From the IMG/VR virus record IMGVR_UViG_2740892422_000004, positions 1 through 9,268 of that record: 9,268 nt of DNA; one strand, given 5' to 3'. The position numbers were made by a program, and so were the translations under genes. The stretch is from a virus. Lineage: Duplodnaviria > Heunggongvirae > Uroviricota > Caudoviricetes. Shown one piece after another: positions 247 to 7,245 of this stretch (positions are counted from its first letter, which is position 1; each line of letters starts with the position of its first letter). Under the pieces are notes generated by a model that saw nothing but the letters and a program-made list of their open reading frames with translations, ran no database searches and was not told the origin of the DNA.

Positions 247-927
247 ATGGGAACTGCGACATTAATACTCGGTGAATCTGGCACCGGAAAATCAACCAGC
301 ATGAGAAATATCAATCCAGAGGAAGCAATACTTATAAAACCAATAGGCAAGCCGCTGCCATTTAAATCAAAAGACTGGTTTGCATGGGATACCAGAGCAA
401 AAAAAGGAACCGTAGTTACCACTGACAAATGGGACGTAATAGTTGCCGTAATTAAACGTGCTCACGAATACGGGAAAAGAATCGTTATTGTTGATGACTT
501 CCAGTATGTGATGAGCAATGAGTTTATGCGCCGCTCAGAAGAAAAATCGTTTGATAAGTTTACTGAGATAGGCCGCCACGCATGGGAGGTCATTAAGGCT
601 GCGCAGGATGCGCCTGATGACCTGAGAGTCTATTTTCTTGCGCACACCGAAGAAACTCCTATGGGGCGTGTGAAAATGAAGACTATCGGCAAAATGCTGG
701 ACGAGAAAATCACTGTCGAAGGCATGTTTACTATAGTTCTTCGCACCCTTACCCGTGATGACCAGTTCTTTTTCACCACAAAAAACAACGGTGCAGACAC
801 TGTTAAATCCCCAATGGGAATGTTTGATTCCAATGAGATTGATAACGATCTCTCTTTCGTCGATGCCACTGTTTGTGATTACTACGGCATCAATAATGTT
901 CATCAAATTAAGGAAAACGCCGCATGA
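247..927 (+). CDS. Sak4-like phage recombination ATPase (RecA-like core, AAA_24-type)
   Basis: 226 aa. Walker A GESGTGKST near the N-terminus, Walker B RIVIVDD around residue 80. Size and motif layout fit phage Sak4 single-strand annealing ATPases. Shine-Dalgarno-like tgagg 8 nt upstream of ATG 247. Sits where lambda carries exo/bet in the early-left operon. Confidence 0.75.
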   Translation: MGTATLILGESGTGKSTSMRNINPEEAILIKPIGKPLPFKSKDWFAWDTRAKKGTVVTTDKWDVIVAVIKRAHEYGKRIVIVDDFQYVMSNEFMRRSEEKSFDKFTEIGRHAWEVIKAAQDAPDDLRVYFLAHTEETPMGRVKMKTIGKMLDEKITVEGMFTIVLRTLTRDDQFFFTTKNNGADTVKSPMGMFDSNEIDNDLSFVDATVCDYYGINNVHQIKENAA

Positions 928-1511
928 GCAACGTAATTTTTACTTATAACGAAGAAGCAGCACTGACCGCAGGGCAAGGTGGTTTTATTAACGAAACTGG
1001 CGCTCATATCATTACCATTACTGAAGCAGAACTAAAGCAATCAGAAAAAGGCGCAAAATTTATTGGATTTTCTGGCGAATCCGACGACGGACGTAAAATC
1101 CAATATCTTAGCGTTTGTGTTCAGAAAAATGACGGCACGGAAAATAAATTTGGCGCAAATGTCGTTCACGCCATGATGGGGTGTGCCGGGATTGGACAAT
1201 TAACGCAACATATGGTTTCCACCAGTAAATTTGTTGCACCTGAATTTCATGGAAAGAAAATCGGGTTAGTGCTCCAGAAAGTATTAACCACAAACAAAAA
1301 GACTGGCGCAGACAGCTACCAGATGGAAATACGCATCCCGTTTATTGCACAAACAGGTCAAACCCTTAAAGAAAAGGCGGAAGGCAAGCAACCAGAAACT
1401 ATCGCCAACATGGTTGCCAGCCTCAAAGATAAAGACAATCGCTCTAAAAACGTAAGCCATAATCATGCAGATGATTATGGTTACAGCCAGAACGATTACC
1501 CTCCTTTCTGA
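924..1511 (+). CDS. Sak4-associated putative ssDNA-binding protein with SSB-like C-terminal tip
   Basis: 195 aa. Start ATG overlaps the upstream stop (ATGA), indicating translational coupling. The C-terminus ...HNHADDYGYSQNDYPPF resembles the acidic/aromatic SSB tail (canonical ...DDDIPF). The N-terminal part does not look like a canonical SSB OB-fold by eye, so the function is inferred mainly from context and the tail. Confidence 0.45.
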   Translation: MSNVIFTYNEEAALTAGQGGFINETGAHIITITEAELKQSEKGAKFIGFSGESDDGRKIQYLSVCVQKNDGTENKFGANVVHAMMGCAGIGQLTQHMVSTSKFVAPEFHGKKIGLVLQKVLTTNKKTGADSYQMEIRIPFIAQTGQTLKEKAEGKQPETIANMVASLKDKDNRSKNVSHNHADDYGYSQNDYPPF

Positions 1512-1534
1512 TTACTGAAAATAAGGCTCCCATT

Positions 1535-1831
1535 ATGCCAGCGCCTCTGTATGGTGCGGATGACCCGCGCAACTGCTCCGGTAGCTCCAAGGCGGAGGTG
1601 CTGGAAAATATCAAAAACAATTTCGACGCGTTTCTTGCTCTGACACCAGAAACAAAAGCAGAACGGATGTACCGACGCTATATACAACTCGCGCTAAAAC
1701 AGGAGAAGGACCGAACAAACGAAACAGCAATGAGACCGTTGCGAAAAGCGACAATAGACAAATTCCCTGAATATATCGACCCGCGCCTGCGTAATTACCG
1801 CTCACGCTATGGCGCTATCAGTAATGACTGA
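1535..1831 (+). CDS. hypothetical prophage early-left protein (98 aa)
   Basis: Long ORF in the same orientation as its neighbours, with a charged, non-repetitive composition. The ribosome-binding site is weak (aagg), so the start is uncertain. Confidence 0.45.
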
Positions 1832-2479: not shown

Positions 2480-2919
2480 GCAAGATTGATTATCAAAAGC
2501 TTCGTGAAATCGCTGAAAAAACAAAAATTGCTGGTGAAGCACCTGTAATGCCTTTCGATCAGCGAATTAATGCGCTTAACGATTTTATGAAGCATTTTTC
2601 GCCAGATATCGCGCTGGCATTGTTGGATGAACGGGAAAGAAACCTGCAATACATCAAAAGCCGCGATCAGGAGAACGAGGATATTGCGCTAACGGTAGGG
2701 AAGTGGCGCGTTGAGCTTGAGGCAGAAAAACAGCGGGCAAAGGATCTGTTTATGGAAAATGCTCGGCTTAAGTCAGGCATAGCCGGTCTGATACACCTCG
2801 GTATTCGATATGCAGATGTTGAGGTCATGAGAATTGCTGGAGATGCCCAGCTTTCTACCCCATGCACTGACAGCATCATAAACAGCATTGCAACAGGCAT
2901 TCGCATCAAAGGAGAGTGA
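2476..2919 (+). CDS. Ea22-like protein (147 aa)
   Basis: GTG start at 2476 preceded by aaaggagg. Segments LREIAEK..., ALALLDERERNLQYIKSRDQENEDIALTVGK.RVELE and the C-terminal GIRIKGE match my recollection of lambda Ea22 and the Ead/Ea22-like prophage family. It is shorter than lambda Ea22 (182 aa, from memory). Confidence 0.6.
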   Translation: MSKIDYQKLREIAEKTKIAGEAPVMPFDQRINALNDFMKHFSPDIALALLDERERNLQYIKSRDQENEDIALTVGKWRVELEAEKQRAKDLFMENARLKSGIAGLIHLGIRYADVEVMRIAGDAQLSTPCTDSIINSIATGIRIKGE

Positions 2920-2920
2920 T

Positions 2921-3409
2921 ATGAGCGCTATAACCAAAGAACGTATCAAATTATTCATTAAAAATCCGCTTGATAACGGACTTACTCGTGGCGAACAAAT
3001 GGAACTGGCACGAATTGCACTGGCATCGCTGGAAGCAGAGCCGGTGGCGTGGAAGGTAACATTCACGCAAATTGACCGTGAATATAACACGTTCACTGCT
3101 ATGTATTCTGACAAAGCAGAAGTCGAACGGTGGGTGCGACTGCATGAAGTAGGTGACTTTCGGGCAGATATAACACCGCTTTATACCGCCCAGCCAGCGC
3201 CGGTAATTCCGGATGGTTGGATAAGCTGTAGTGAGCGAATGCCCGCTCAAGATGATTGGATTTTAATTTATTCAAAGCACGGTGAGTATATGGCAGGACA
3301 GGTGCAAGGGGAATACGTGGAGTTGAGCGATGGCACTTTATCGTGGTTAGGGAGCGCCTTGTTCTGGATGCCGCTACCAGAACCGCCGCAGGAGGTTAAC
3401 CGTGGCTAA
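2921..3409 (+). CDS. DUF551-like prophage protein (162 aa from ATG 2921; the track ORF starts in frame at 2888)
   Basis: Strong ribosome-binding site aaaggagag ends 4 nt before ATG 2921, and the upstream gene's stop is at 2917-2919. The C-terminal region DGWISCSERMPAQDDWILIY...WMPLPEPP matches the DUF551 signature as I remember it. Confidence 0.55.
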   Translation: MSAITKERIKLFIKNPLDNGLTRGEQMELARIALASLEAEPVAWKVTFTQIDREYNTFTAMYSDKAEVERWVRLHEVGDFRADITPLYTAQPAPVIPDGWISCSERMPAQDDWILIYSKHGEYMAGQVQGEYVELSDGTLSWLGSALFWMPLPEPPQEVNRG

Positions 3410-3508
3410 CCTGCAACTTGCCGTCAAAGGTGAATAACAATCCTCGCACTCGCGGGGATTTCTTTTATCTGAACTCTCTACGGCGGTTTTTGTTTTATGG
3501 AGATGATT

Positions 3509-3808
3509 ATGATCTGTTCAACATTCAACCATCTAACGTTACAGAAATACCAGCCGGACCCTGAAGATTTATGCTCACTGTGTGGAGTAAATCATGGTAA
3601 AGCCGCCATGATCGAATGTAAGGACAAAATCCACATTTGCCTTAATTGCGTTGATGTCCTCGTTGATATCAAAAATGAGAGAGAAGATAAAAAGCGTAGC
3701 GAGGCTGTTCGCGCCTTAGATTCATGGATGCGAGATGGGTATAGTGCTGCGCAAATTTATGACTTAGCAATATCAAAAGGCGAAATACCAGGAGTGCGCA
3801 TCGAATAA
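3509..3808 (+). CDS. small zinc-ribbon-like protein (CxxC...CxxC), possible regulator (99 aa from ATG 3509)
   Basis: ggag at 3499-3502 lies 6 nt upstream of ATG 3509. Two CxxC pairs (CSLCG ... CLNC) about 25 residues apart; the C-terminal SAAQIYDLAISKGEIPGVRIE looks helix-turn-helix-like. In-frame ATGs at 3497 and 3503 are alternative starts. Confidence 0.5.
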   Translation: MICSTFNHLTLQKYQPDPEDLCSLCGVNHGKAAMIECKDKIHICLNCVDVLVDIKNEREDKKRSEAVRALDSWMRDGYSAAQIYDLAISKGEIPGVRIE

Positions 3809-3850
3809 GACGTAACCAATATTCGAATTGAAGAACTGAAAGAACACCAA

Positions 3851-3872
3851 GCCGCCTGATGGCGGTTTTTTA
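3851..3872 (+). terminator. intrinsic terminator-like hairpin
   Basis: gccgcc-tgat-ggcgg stem-loop (5-6 bp GC stem, 4-nt loop) followed by ttttttatt, 43 nt after the stop of the zinc-ribbon gene and directly before the ribosome-binding site of the next gene. Confidence 0.55.
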
Positions 3873-3885
3873 TTGGAGACAAGAA

Positions 3886-4230
3886 ATGTCAGATTTGGCT
3901 ATGAAGGTTTTGAAATGGCAATCGACTGGCGATGTTGGCATCAGTAGCGCAACTCTTGCCTCAATCGCATGTGGACTGAAAAAGAATATCTATGGTCATC
4001 ACTTCGGCGCTCCACATGACGCAGCAGACTTCCGGCGATGCGTTGCACTTGTTGAGCAGATTCCAGAAATCAGAGCTTCATTCGACAAAGTTGCAAAGCG
4101 CGTTCCTGCATTCAAAGGAATCCTCAACGAATGGGATTCCCTCGTTGCTCTGTTGAAGTCTGAAATGAAGATACACGGAAACAAAGCACCAGAGACTTAC
4201 AGAAGAATCAGCGAGCTACGCAAGGACTAA
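3886..4230 (+). CDS. hypothetical prophage protein (114 aa from ATG 3886; the track ORF starts at 3859 inside the hairpin)
   Basis: ggag at 3875-3878 lies 7 nt upstream of ATG 3886. Begins MSDLAMKVLKWQSTGDV...; no motif I recognise. Confidence 0.5.
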   Translation: MSDLAMKVLKWQSTGDVGISSATLASIACGLKKNIYGHHFGAPHDAADFRRCVALVEQIPEIRASFDKVAKRVPAFKGILNEWDSLVALLKSEMKIHGNKAPETYRRISELRKD

Positions 4231-4289
4231 CCACAGCCTCACACTCGATGAGGCCTGTTCATTTCTCAATGATATCCAGACCTACCATC

Positions 4290-4312
4290 GCCGCATCAAT
4301 GCGGCTTTTCTT
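4290..4312 (+). terminator. intrinsic terminator-like hairpin upstream of xis
   Basis: gccgc-atcaat-gcggc stem-loop followed by ttttctt. A second hairpin, gcctca-cactcga-tgaggc at 4236-4254, follows the upstream stop codon. Confidence 0.45.
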
Positions 4313-4336
4313 GCGTGTAATTGCGGAGACTTTGCG

Positions 4337-4555
4337 ATGTACTTGACACTTCAGGAGTGGAACGCTCGCCAGCGACGCCCAAGAAGCCTTGAAACAGTTC
4401 GTCGATGGGTGCGCGAATGCAGGATATTCCCTCCTCCTGTTAAGGATGGAAGAGAATATCTGTTCCACGAATCAGCGGTAAAGGTTGACTTAAATCGACC
4501 AGTAACAGGTAGCCTTTTGAAGAGGATCAGAAATGGGAAGAAGGCGAAGTCATGA
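4337..4555 (+). CDS. xis: excisionase Xis (lambda-type)
   Basis: 72 aa, MYLTLQEWNARQRRPRSLETVRRWVRECRIFPPPVKDGREYLFHESAVKVDLNRPV..., essentially the lambda Xis sequence as I recall it. Its 3' end overlaps the int start, as in lambda. Confidence 0.93.
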   Translation: MYLTLQEWNARQRRPRSLETVRRWVRECRIFPPPVKDGREYLFHESAVKVDLNRPVTGSLLKRIRNGKKAKS

Positions 4556-5603
4556 GCGCCGGGATTTACCCCCTAACCTTTATATAAGAAACAATGGATA
4601 TTACTGCTACAGGGACCCAAGGACGGGTAAAGAGTTCGGATTAGGCAGAGACAGGAGGATAGCAATCACTGAAGCAATACATGCCAACATTGAGTTATTT
4701 TCAGGACACAAACACAAGCCTCTGACAGCGAGAATCAACAGTGATAATTCTGTTACGTTACATTCATGGCTTGATCGCTACGAAAAAATCCTCGCCAGCA
4801 GAGGAATCAAGCAGAAGACACTCATAAATTACATGAGCAAAATTAAAGCAATAAGGAGGGGGCTGCCTGATGCTCCACTTGAAGACATCACCACAAAAGA
4901 AATTGCGGCAATGCTCAATGGATACATAGACGAGGGCAAGGCTGCGTCAGCCAAGTTAATCAGATCAACACTGAGCGATGCATTCCGAGAGGCTATAGCT
5001 GAAGGCCATATAACAACAAACCCGGTCGCAGCCACTCGCGCAGCAAAATCAGAGGTAAGGAGATCAAGACTTACGGCTGACGAATACCTGAAAATTTATC
5101 AAGCAGCAGAATCATCACCATGTTGGCTAAGACTTGCAATGGAACTGGCTGTTGTTACCGGGCAGCGAGTTGGGGATTTATGCGAAATGAAATGGTCTGA
5201 TATCGTAGATGGATATCTTTATGTCGAGCAAAGCAAAACAGGCGTAAAAATTGCCATCCCTACAACGTTGCATGTTGATGTTCTCGGAATATCAATGAAG
5301 GAAACACTTGATAAATGCAAAGAGATTCTTGGCGGAGAAACCATAATTGCATCTACTCGTCGCGAACCGCTTTCATCCGGCACAGTATCAAGGTATTTTA
5401 TGCGCGCACGAAAAGCATCAGGTCTTTCCTTCGAAGGGGATCCGCCTACCTTTCACGAGTTGCGCAGTTTGTCTGCAAGACTCTATGAGAAGCAGATAAG
5501 CGATAAGTTTGCTCAACATCTTCTCGGGCATAAGTCGGACACCATGGCATCACAGTATCGTGATGACAGAGGCAGGGAGTGGGACAAAATTGAAATCAAA
5601 TAA
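4533..5603 (+). CDS. int: tyrosine integrase Int (lambda-type)
   Basis: 356 aa, MGRRRSHERRDLPPNLYIRNNGYYCYRDPRTGKEFGLGRDRRIAITEA...HELRSLSARLYEKQISDKFAQHLLGHKSDTMASQYRDDRGREWDKIEIK, near-identical to lambda Int from memory with a few substitutions. Lies adjacent to the att site. Confidence 0.96.
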   Translation: MGRRRSHERRDLPPNLYIRNNGYYCYRDPRTGKEFGLGRDRRIAITEAIHANIELFSGHKHKPLTARINSDNSVTLHSWLDRYEKILASRGIKQKTLINYMSKIKAIRRGLPDAPLEDITTKEIAAMLNGYIDEGKAASAKLIRSTLSDAFREAIAEGHITTNPVAATRAAKSEVRRSRLTADEYLKIYQAAESSPCWLRLAMELAVVTGQRVGDLCEMKWSDIVDGYLYVEQSKTGVKIAIPTTLHVDVLGISMKETLDKCKEILGGETIIASTRREPLSSGTVSRYFMRARKASGLSFEGDPPTFHELRSLSARLYEKQISDKFAQHLLGHKSDTMASQYRDDRGREWDKIEIK

Positions 5604-5700
5604 TGATTTTATTTTGACTGATAGTGACCTGTTCGTTGCAACAAATTGATAAGCAATGCTTTTTTATAATGCCAACTTAGTATAAAAAAGCAGGCTTCAA
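5604..5700 (-). other. prophage attachment junction attL (B-O-P'), lambda att core on the minus strand
   Basis: 5604-5676 matches the lambda P' arm (ttgataagcaatgcttttttataatgccaactt, read on the opposite strand). The core TTAGTATAAAAAAGC at 5677-5691 is the reverse complement of GCTTTTTTATACTAA. The sequence after the core (aggcttca...) matches the attB bacterial arm, not attP. Confidence 0.9.
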
Positions 5701-5737
5701 CGGATTCATTTTTCTATTTCATAGCCCGGAGCAACCT

Positions 5738-7021
5738 GTGAACACATTTTCAGTTTCCCGTCTGGCGCTGGCATTGGCTTTTGGCGTGACGCTGACCGCC
5801 TGTAGCTCAACCCCGCCCGATCAACGTCCTTCTGATCAAACCGCGCCTGGTACCTCTTCTCGCCCGATTCTGTCGGCAAAAGAAGCGCAGAATTTCGATG
5901 CTCAACACTATTTTGCATCCCTGACACCAGGTGCTGCAGCGTGGAATCCTTCCCCGATTACCCTGCCTGCGCAACCTGACTTTGTTGTCGGCCCGGCGGG
6001 CACTCAAGGTGTAACGCATACCACGATTCAGGCGGCGGTAGATGCGGCAATTATCAAGCGTACCAACAAGCGCCAGTATATTGCCGTGATGCCTGGTGAG
6101 TATCAGGGAACGGTATATGTCCCTGCCGCTCCGGGTGGAATTACTCTGTACGGTACAGGTGAAAAACCGATTGATGTGAAGATTGGGCTTTCCCTTGATG
6201 GTGGCATGAGCCCTGCCGACTGGCGTCACGACGTCAACCCGCGCGGCAAATATATGCCAGGTAAACCAGCGTGGTATATGTACGATAGCTGCCAGAGCAA
6301 ACGCAGCGACAGTATCGGTGTTCTCTGCTCTGCGGTCTTCTGGTCACAAAACAATGGCCTGCAACTGCAAAATCTGACCATCGAAAACACGCTGGGCGAT
6401 AGCGTAGATGCAGGTAACCATCCGGCGGTGGCACTGCGTACTGATGGTGACCAGGTACAGATTAACAACGTTAACATTCTCGGTCGTCAGAACACCTTCT
6501 TTGTCACCAACAGCGGTGTGCAGAACCGTCTGGAAACGAATCGTCAGCCGCGTACGCTGGTGACCAACAGCTACATTGAAGGGGATGTGGATATCGTTTC
6601 TGGTCGCGGCGCAGTGGTGTTCGATAACACCGAATTCCGCGTGGTGAACTCACGTACTCAGCAAGAAGCGTATGTGTTTGCACCGGCTACGCTGTCCAAC
6701 ATTTACTACGGTTTCCTCGCCGTAAACAGCCGTTTCAATGCTTTCGGTGATGGTGTGGCGCAACTGGGCCGCTCGCTGGATGTTGATGCCAATACCAACG
6801 GTCAGGTGGTGATCCGTGATAGCGCCATCAACGAAGGTTTTAACACGGCTAAACCGTGGGCCGATGCGGTGATCTCTAATCGTCCGTTTGCGGGTAATAC
6901 CGGCAGCGTAGATGATAACGACGAAATACAGCGCAATCTGAATGACACTAACTACAACCGCATGTGGGAATACAATAACCGCGGCGTGGGTAGTAAAGTG
7001 GTTGCAGAGGCGAAGAAGTAA
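5738..7021 (+). CDS. ybhC: YbhC lipoprotein (pectinesterase-fold putative acyl-CoA thioesterase)
   Basis: 427 aa with GTG start. Signal peptide plus lipobox MNTFSVSRLALALAFGVTLTAC. Matches the E. coli gene flanking the lambda attB site as I recall it. ggag lies 8 nt upstream of the start. Confidence 0.88.
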   Translation: MNTFSVSRLALALAFGVTLTACSSTPPDQRPSDQTAPGTSSRPILSAKEAQNFDAQHYFASLTPGAAAWNPSPITLPAQPDFVVGPAGTQGVTHTTIQAAVDAAIIKRTNKRQYIAVMPGEYQGTVYVPAAPGGITLYGTGEKPIDVKIGLSLDGGMSPADWRHDVNPRGKYMPGKPAWYMYDSCQSKRSDSIGVLCSAVFWSQNNGLQLQNLTIENTLGDSVDAGNHPAVALRTDGDQVQINNVNILGRQNTFFVTNSGVQNRLETNRQPRTLVTNSYIEGDVDIVSGRGAVVFDNTEFRVVNSRTQQEAYVFAPATLSNIYYGFLAVNSRFNAFGDGVAQLGRSLDVDANTNGQVVIRDSAINEGFNTAKPWADAVISNRPFAGNTGSVDDNDEIQRNLNDTNYNRMWEYNNRGVGSKVVAEAKK

Positions 7022-7029
7022 GAGCAATT

Positions 7030-7245
<216 letters not shown>

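Follow-up and report, generated by a model that had tools for sequence, protein, structure and literature searches.

Gene content and layout of the locus

The subject of this study is a short region just upstream of xis in a 9,268-nt stretch of DNA (hereafter the window) from the Caudoviricetes record IMGVR_UViG_2740892422_000004. Two small accessory genes lie there among terminator-like hairpins; one encodes a zinc-ribbon protein of 99 amino acids (aa), and the other a 114-aa protein that is the counterpart of ORF114 of phage 434. The explanation that best accounts for our results overall, and that we regard as probably correct, is that this region is the end of a leftward early (pL) operon, punctuated by predicted terminators and carrying exchangeable accessory genes. 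Its features are as follows.

3439-3469, plus strand: hairpin 1 with a T-rich tail, AATCCTCGC-ACTC-GCGGGGATT TCTTTTAT; 't3' of lambda (Bloch 2014), 't-L4' of 434
3471-3497, plus strand: degenerate second hairpin of the tL4 linker, corresponding to lambda 't4' (GAACTCGC-TACG-GCGGGTTTTGTTTT); broken here
3509-3808, plus strand: 99-aa zinc-ribbon gene (phrog_3680; 933W L0063/ST933Wp03, Sf6 gp19, VT2-Sakai), in the slot of lambda orf55
3809-3859, plus strand: 3' remnant of lambda orf55, its last 16 codons and TGA (51 bp)
3849-3874, plus strand: hairpin 2 with U-tract, AAGCCGCC-TGAT-GGCGGTTT TTTATT; putative terminator of the lambda/P22 t'I type
3886-4230, plus strand: 114-aa gene, ORF114 of phage 434 and gp32 of HK022 (phrog_1229); all-alpha product, an indel relative to lambda
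4236-4254, plus strand: hairpin 3, GCCTCA-CACTCGA-TGAGGC, without a U-tract, in the 3' untranslated region of the ORF114 module
4290-4312, plus strand: hairpin 4, GCCGCA-TCAA-TGCGGC followed by TTTTCTT; 434-type t'I, abutting the CII box of pI
4311-4324, plus strand: CII-binding tetrad repeat TTGC-N6-TTGC of the pI (int) promoter; the pI/CII site of the 434 annotation, identical in lambda

The two open reading frames (ORFs) had been proposed in a preliminary description of this DNA, and both hold up on the strength of their ribosome-binding sites (RBS) and of alignments with homologues and PHROG profiles. The zinc-ribbon gene has a GGAG at 3499-3502, 6 nt ahead of its ATG, and the Met at 3509 is where the PHROG profile and the homologue alignments begin. 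For ORF114 the RBS is a GGAG at 3875-3878. A longer ORF of 123 aa, starting at 3859, was rejected, since its start lies inside a hairpin loop and it has no support from the family alignment.

The hairpins correspond to annotated lambdoid terminators

A consensus scan of positions 2800-5800 returned 7 terminator-like sites, against 2.5 +/- 1.5 in shuffled sequences, and all four numbered hairpins fold better than their shuffled controls (z from -5.0 to -2.4). Hairpins 2, 3 and 4 lie where the preliminary description had placed its three terminator-like structures. That label stands for 3849-3868 (-13.4 kcal/mol) and 4290-4305 (-10.5 kcal/mol), both of which are followed by a U-tract, and fails for 4236-4254 (-10.3 kcal/mol), which is not. 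Hairpin 1 (3439-3460), upstream of the zinc-ribbon gene, was absent from that description; it folds at -13.1 kcal/mol (z -5.0) and has a U-tract, TCTTTTAT.

Sequence homologous to hairpin 1 lies upstream of orf55 in both lambda and 434, and the 434 record M60848 labels t-L4 there. It also matches t3_lambda, a predicted terminator in Table 4 of PMC4195576, where t4_lambda is listed as well; the t3/t4 pair of lambda is located between ea8.5 and orf55. The counterpart of t4 in the window folds at just -1.1 kcal/mol (z +0.9), while the versions in lambda, HK022, SPN9CC and Sf6 are intact. In the Sf6 copy, a G-to-A change converts a T.G wobble to a T-A pair. This tL4-type linker is found in Sf6, HK022, SPN9CC and ES18 too; a literature search on tL4 gave nothing usable.

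Hairpin 2 has 8 pairs followed by TTTTTTATT (z -3.2). In a four-way alignment, the 65 bp from 3808 to 3872, comprising the orf55 tail, stem, loop and six Ts, are shared without a difference by the window, lambda, 434 and Sf6; the identity to P22 is 98.8% over window positions 3812-3892. In 434 the stem itself is mismatched (-7.4 kcal/mol), unlike the intact one here. The hairpin is the predicted terminator 't5_lambda' of Bloch et al. (PMC4195576), and it carries two labels in the P22-pbi annotation, terminator t'I and 3' end of aI RNA. In lambda, hairpin 2 and its six Ts run straight into CTTGCGTGTAATTGC, the CII box of pI; here the same hairpin is about 440 bp upstream of the CII box rather than adjacent to it, owing to the block that contains ORF114.

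Hairpin 3 (z -2.9), which 434 and HK022 have conserved, is followed by CTGTTCATTT; lacking a U-tract, it does not qualify as a canonical intrinsic terminator. Hairpin 4 (z -2.4), together with the CII box, is identical to the annotated t'I/pI of 434, and the first bases of that box (4311-4324) are shared with the T-run of the hairpin (4306-4312). Of the two 434 records, M60848 has 't'-I' at this position and OL657226 has 'terminator PMID:6305007'. As far as sequence identity can tell, hairpins 1, 2 and 4 are thus the already annotated t-L4 and t'I elements of 434, lambda and P22; homologous sites are annotated as terminators in M60848, OL657226 and AF527608.

Two slots with exchangeable occupants

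The remnant of orf55 stands in frame directly after the TAA of the zinc-ribbon gene, has its TGA in the loop of hairpin 2, and translates as DVTNIRIEELKEHQAA*, the C-terminus of lambda Orf55. Upstream, the zinc-ribbon gene has its linker and RBS in common with orf55 (…TTTTATGGAGATGAT…ATG). With the linker and RBS of orf55 on one side and its tail on the other, the gene stands exactly in place of the orf55 body. In 933W, too, part of orf55 has been noted in the vicinity of xis (Donaldson 2021). We also note that read-through of the zinc-ribbon TAA would append the Orf55 tail to the protein.

Further downstream, the window, 434 and HK022 have some 435 bp (about 3873-4308) between hairpin 2 and pI, a clean indel with respect to lambda. 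This block contains ORF114, hairpin 3 and a second hairpin, GCCGCATCAATGCGGC followed by TTTT, which is the annotated t'I in both 434 records. ORF114 is therefore flanked by two similarly designed hairpin and T-run elements; no long direct repeats flank it, the likeness being limited to the 3' arms of the hairpins and their T-runs. In P22, the linker of hairpin 2 continues with the same RBS and first bases (ATTGGAGACAA.AAATGTCAG), so that hairpin, RBS and ATGTCAG are followed by eaC. Since the same linker leads to eaC in P22, ORF114 and eaC are alternatives in one slot.

Judged by these alignments, slot A is occupied by orf55 in lambda, 434 and HK022 and by the zinc-ribbon gene in the window, 933W and Sf6, while lambda has nothing in slot B, P22 has eaC there, and ORF114 takes the place in the window, 434 and HK022. 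The layout of the region is then a tL4-type linker, slot A, a lambda/P22-type t'I, slot B, a 434-type t'I, the CII-dependent pI, xis and int.

BLAST matches from 405-452 phage records end at the edges of the hairpins (3431-3433, 3808-3812, 3875, 4266, 4286 and 4309). No phage record covers at least 80% of 3400-4340 in a single match; 42 of 5,426 complete E. coli genomes do so, and 2,863 contain some part of it. Linkers also occur alone, with hairpin 1 in ES18, the tL4-type linker in SPN9CC, and hairpin 2 in P22, ST64T and HK633. Stx2 (Shiga toxin 2) phage 86 has just the 5' half of ORF114. HK542 and HK75 match window positions 4182-4286 only, that is, the 3' end of ORF114 with hairpin 3; if a deletion has left this stretch behind, hairpin 3 has persisted there without the rest of ORF114.

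The two genes likewise part company. The zinc-ribbon gene occurs without ORF114 in 933W and Sf6, and ORF114 is accompanied by orf55 instead in 434 and HK022. In Enterobacter prophages a zinc-ribbon homologue (49% identity), and in Citrobacter prophages an ORF114 homologue (59%), are alternatives in the same slot, right after an ORF of 64-66 aa and just upstream of xis/int. This short ORF itself lies downstream of TraR/orf73-like and DUF4222 genes in the Enterobacter (L011 3790-4531) and Citrobacter (L015 3797-4375) prophages. In Enterobacter, a hairpin directly 3' of the zinc-ribbon homologue has the same stem, U-tract and ATTGGAG with a different loop, and a hairpin-2-type linker precedes a 54-aa ORF. 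In the Citrobacter prophage, a terminator-like hairpin of unrelated sequence stands between the ORF114 homologue and int, and no hairpin is found upstream of the homologue. Hence, a terminator before the recombination module is a recurrent feature, while insulation of ORF114 on both sides is not. We conclude that the co-occurrence of the zinc-ribbon gene and ORF114 is a rare recombinant of independent cassettes, rather than the two-gene unit that had been proposed.

Alternative readings of the hairpins and genes

The clustering of match ends at the hairpins also speaks for a different reading, in which they are not mainly pL terminators but recombination 'boundary sequences', stabilisers of mRNA 3' ends or, in the case of hairpin 2, a terminator for antisense transcription. 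The Sf6 annotation has a 'boundary sequence' that begins right after hairpin 2, and hairpin 3 has no U-tract. In P22-pbi (L006 1238-1258), hairpin 2 is the 3' end of the antisense aI RNA, which comes from a C1-activated promoter inside eaC, and this implies use of the terminator in the opposite direction; the minus strand at hairpin 2 (3852-3865) does form a hairpin here. That hairpin is, however, weaker (-9.4 kcal/mol, z -1.5) and has a poor T-run, whereas hairpins 1, 2 and 4 have canonical U-tracts on the plus strand. A search of ORF114 for a CII-type box that could mark an antisense promoter, as for the aI RNA of P22, found none. Moreover, the presence of an unrelated hairpin at the same place in the Citrobacter prophage argues for selection on function. 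Boundary, stabiliser and antisense roles are all compatible with terminator function, and it seems unlikely to us that any of them is the main one.

A second reading takes ORF114 for a moron, a gene expressed autonomously from its own promoter, closed by its own terminator and of benefit to the lysogen. ORF114 does separate elements that adjoin each other in lambda, and a terminator lies downstream of it (hairpin 4, the t'I of 434); the definition of a moron by Juhala et al. in 2000 reportedly includes both an extra gene between adjacent elements and a terminator. Against this, no sigma70-like promoter was found in or near 3809-3885, nor near either gene, in agreement with the failure of the preliminary description to find a convincing one for ORF114; the single site in 3 kb lies at 5563, against 5.2 expected. 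GC content across ORF114 is 0.45-0.47 compared with 0.42-0.51 in its neighbours, and hence shows no difference in composition. The element upstream of ORF114 is a terminator and RBS linker that also stands before eaC in P22 and before the 54-aa ORF in Enterobacter. Distant homologues have no upstream hairpin, and some belong to virulent phages, in one of which the gene lies inside an operon and overlaps the gene upstream. The moron-like character first suggested for this gene, as one insulated on both sides, is thus not upheld, and we consider the reading very improbable.

A third reading, that the zinc-ribbon protein and ORF114 are a co-acting pair (a toxin and antitoxin, for example, or defence and counter-defence) insulated as a unit, draws on the adjacent, co-oriented and hairpin-bracketed position of the two genes here, and can be practically dismissed in view of their independent assortment, the rarity of their joint carriage, their role as alternatives in Enterobacter and Citrobacter, the terminator between them and the lack of any PADLOC match.

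Setting of the region and its proposed working

With these alternatives weighed, the reading as a terminator-punctuated end of a pL operon can be placed in its genomic setting. A lambda-like prophage occupies the lambda attB site, and the window covers its int-proximal end, as can be seen from the following features.

4337-4555, plus strand: xis, lambda type (Pfam Exc, E 3.9e-41)
4533-5603, plus strand: int, lambda type
4337-5603, plus strand: xis-int module, preceded by the t'I hairpins
5677-5691, minus strand: lambda att core GCTTTTTTATACTAA, 15 bp; prophage/host junction near ybhC

The att core is an exact match, where chance would give 0, and beyond it lie the host genes ybhC and ybhJ. Upstream of the region are genes for Sak4, SSB, Abc2, an Ea22-like protein and a DUF551 protein, all on the plus strand. 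In a closely related prophage of E. coli NT1F31 at the same attB, the order is cI - N - cIII - kil - Sak4 - ... - ORF114 - xis - int - ybhC, with all genes co-oriented. The zinc-ribbon gene and ORF114 therefore very likely belong to the promoter-distal 'exo-xis region' of the delayed-early leftward operon.

In the pL operon of lambda, RNA polymerase modified by N reads past the tL terminators into xis-int, and the CII-activated promoter pI, located inside xis, yields Int without Xis during the establishment of lysogeny (PMC2951348). Quantitative PCR in lambda has shown that exo-xis transcripts are less abundant in the distal part, beyond a predicted terminator (PMC4195576).

By analogy with lambda, the region may work as follows. 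After induction or infection, antiterminated polymerase from pL would pass tL4 and both t'I hairpins into xis-int, and the two accessory genes would be expressed together with xis-int as delayed-early genes. Unmodified polymerase would halt at the hairpins, and stray upstream transcription would therefore be kept out of xis-int; CII-activated pI could then give Int without Xis. In the repressed prophage, both the zinc-ribbon gene and ORF114 are expected to be silent. Their products would act as independent accessory early proteins. In addition, the linkers of hairpin, U-tract and RBS may double as homology patches for the exchange of accessory genes: because they are near-identical across otherwise different phages, they would serve as such patches and give the region its cassette-like look. 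The preliminary description had already taken terminators between co-oriented genes as a sign of antitermination and read-through. This suggestion is in keeping with the established logic of the lambda pL operon and is supported by the context of the region.

Several points weigh against this interpretation. The antiterminator gene and the nut (or put) sites lie outside the window, and we thus infer read-through from the NT1F31 prophage. GenBank annotations are the source for the experimental status of t'I, and termination in the present sequence is predicted. (The experimental basis of t'I is reportedly work by Benedik, Mascarenhas & Campbell, 1983, in Virology, which is probably the PMID 6305007 cited in the 434 record.) Hairpin 3 lacks a U-tract, as noted above, and individual hairpins are clearly dispensable, given that t4 is broken here and hairpin 2 is weakened in 434. 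Finally, the near-identity of the linkers could reflect recent exchange instead of selection for termination.

Some further observations concern the surroundings. The exact att core lies 74 bp past the int stop codon. In an integrated phage of the lambda type, the sib/tI retroregulation site would be found at the opposite prophage end, and transcripts of xis-int therefore run into host DNA towards ybhC here. The recombination module (window 247-1831) is of the Sak4 - SSB - Abc2 (anti-RecBCD) type and not the exo-bet-gam type of lambda; its combination with a lambda-type xis-int is a further sign of mosaicism. Between ybhC and ybhJ (window 7037-7231) are two tandem composite repeats resembling repetitive extragenic palindromes (REP), composed of 35-nt and 65-nt units that are 89-97% identical, and these give spurious ORFs on both strands. 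A search of Rfam over 3300-4600 gave nothing real, the best match being RsmY at E 0.68.

The zinc-ribbon protein and its likeness to ClpX

The CxxC...CxxC motif that had been noticed in the first gene is confirmed: the cysteines C22-x2-C25 ... C44-x2-C47 are invariant in 18 homologues. The family (phrog_3680) comprises 34 clusters, all from enterobacterial prophages, and the gene is present in 52 phage records, including 933W, VT2-Sakai, Min27 and Sf6. Its members share a conserved N-domain (residues 14-62), a variable linker and a conserved C-terminal peptide. An AlphaFold2 (AF2) model with a predicted local distance difference test (pLDDT) score of 67 has a zinc-ribbon hairpin, a long helix (residues 45-75) and a short one (80-88). 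This helical C-terminal part is the variable region of the family, and no helix-turn-helix family was matched in a Pfam search of the protein, even at E<=10. The helix-turn-helix-like C-terminus first proposed is therefore not borne out.

The sole similarity found for the protein is to the N-terminal C4 zinc-binding domain of ClpX. The cysteine spacing, C-x2-C-x18-C-x2-C, is the same as in the N-terminal domain of E. coli ClpX, and the signature residues CS[FL]CG ... ICxECVDL are common to both. The Pfam domain zf-C4_ClpX (PF06689) is matched weakly by 18 of 18 members, with a best E of 0.0013 and a score of 16.2 bits that misses the gathering threshold of 27; NCBIfam ClpX likewise falls under its cut-off (E 0.0017). 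An hhalign comparison with the ClpX zinc-binding domain gives a probability of 92% (E 5.7e-7). All matches at E<=1 in phmmer and hmmsearch runs against the PDB are to ClpX, and the PDB profile search returned ClpX alone (E 0.023-0.42). A further PDB search returned ClpX, RING finger protein Z, PvuRts1I and prolyl-tRNA synthetase only. Foldseek with the weak model (pLDDT 67) gave generic zinc fingers only, at E>1. It appears, then, that the N-terminal domain resembles the ClpX C4 zinc-binding domain at a level below curated thresholds. A literature search on zf-C4_ClpX in phages gave nothing usable.

Unlike ClpX, the protein is free-standing, has no AAA+ module, and adds a variable linker and a conserved C-terminal peptide. 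In this architecture it recalls ClpX adaptors such as SspB. Adaptors of the SspB type consist of a folded domain, a flexible linker and a C-terminal peptide that docks on ClpX. The zinc-ribbon family retains an end peptide, G-[KE]-I-P-x-x-R-[IF]-[DE]-COOH (residues 86-99), after its highly variable linker, and such a conserved-end layout is typical for docking by a terminal peptide. We presume a loose likeness between this peptide and the hydrophobic-R-hydrophobic ClpX-binding tail of SspB.

That the 99-aa protein mimics the N-terminal zinc-binding domain of ClpX in free-standing form is an idea that we consider unlikely. If it is correct, an early mimic could pair or compete with the zinc-binding domain of ClpX and thereby alter the degradation of phage or host substrates by ClpXP; the lambdoid O replication protein is an example of a ClpXP substrate that might be affected. 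Recognition of the lambdoid O protein involves the N-terminal zinc-binding domain of ClpX. We know of no phage-encoded decoy of this domain.

Other candidates for a relative or a name were rejected. Lambda Ea8.5, a homeodomain/zinc-finger hybrid encoded near xis, gave an hhalign probability of 0.5%, and no PDB chain of the Ea8.5 type was among the matches; nor does the gene lie in the ea8.5 slot, as it occupies that of orf55, downstream of the tL4 linker. A label of 'Lar-like restriction alleviation protein' under the Sf6 RefSeq match was dropped: the zinc-ribbon gene of Sf6 is named only 'gene 19 protein', and the label therefore presumably belongs to another gene under the match.

ORF114, a member of a large phage family

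The ORF114 product is 96.5% identical to its 434 counterpart, and gp32 of HK022 is annotated as 'N15 early protein homolog'. Its AF2 model (pLDDT 93.6) has seven helices. It has no match in Pfam, NCBIfam or PADLOC, the family has no relative of solved fold, and the literature yielded nothing usable on ORF114 of phage 434. An exhaustive profile search collected at least 2,833 clusters at 50% identity, 642 of them at E<=1e-10, with the signature W-x3-G-x-[VT]-G-x-S-S ... P-x-D-P-[SA]-D-F-x-R-C ... P-E-[IL]. Most relatives are free-standing proteins of 105-135 aa, and one (P0101) is a tandem duplication. Among ten long relatives scanned, known domains were found only in P0205, which carries a CCA-adding enzyme; this single case was too thin to follow as a fusion-based lead and was dropped. 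At 90% identity or more, ORF114 is present in 58 phage records, and tblastn finds it in Vibrio, Arthrobacter, Haemophilus (SuMu) and 9NA-like phages also. Both proteins of the locus thus match known lambdoid proteins, one half of what the preliminary description had named as grounds against its own reading; the other half, that these would have a defined function, does not hold for either.

Significance and comparison with known systems

The hairpins and both genes are, by sequence, at least 95% identical to deposited elements of lambda, 434, HK022, P22, Sf6 and 933W, and are in this respect already known. The region would serve as a textbook case of a lambdoid early operon punctuated by terminators that only antiterminated polymerase passes, with linkers of terminator and RBS that would also be seams for the recombination of accessory genes. 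An annotation can assign the hairpins to tL4 and t'I, the 51 bp after the first gene to a remnant of orf55, and the supposed unit to two independent cassettes. ORF114 is a modest lead in its own right, as a member of a very large phage family with neither a Pfam entry nor a relative of solved fold. The ClpX N-domain look-alike, likewise a modest lead, is the one reading worth a test at the bench, long though the odds are; if it is true, the zinc-ribbon protein, which Stx phages such as 933W and VT2-Sakai carry, would give phages a new route to disturb host proteolysis.

The closest parallels are found within the lambdoid phages themselves. The t'I of lambda and P22, a hairpin GCCGCCTGATGGCGG with a U-tract, lies immediately upstream of pI in lambda, and window positions 3808-3872 follow lambda base for base. 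Unlike lambda t'I, hairpin 2 is separated from pI by the ORF114 block, as it is in 434 and HK022, and would therefore be an internal operon terminator before ORF114. Phage 434 (M60848; OL657226) has the same sequence as the window at hairpins 3 and 4 and at the pI box, and a tL4-type linker lies upstream. The window departs from 434 in having the zinc-ribbon gene where 434 has the body of ORF55, an intact hairpin 2 and a degenerate second tL4 hairpin. The zinc-ribbon proteins of 933W (L0063), Sf6 (gp19) and VT2-Sakai are 96-97% identical to that of the window and their genes have the same upstream linker, with hairpin 2 following in Sf6; unlike the window, 933W has xis next and Sf6 a pI-like promoter, and neither has ORF114.

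Two more general classes of element invite comparison. Like morons of the HK97/HK022 type, ORF114 is polymorphic for presence and absence and has a terminator downstream; unlike them, it has no promoter of its own, does not differ in composition and lies inside an early operon. The 'boundary sequences' of lambdoid phages (Sf6, AF547987) are likewise short conserved intergenic blocks at which homology starts and stops. Unlike generic boundary sequences, the linkers described here consist of a terminator hairpin, a U-tract and an RBS, in some cases together with the start codon.

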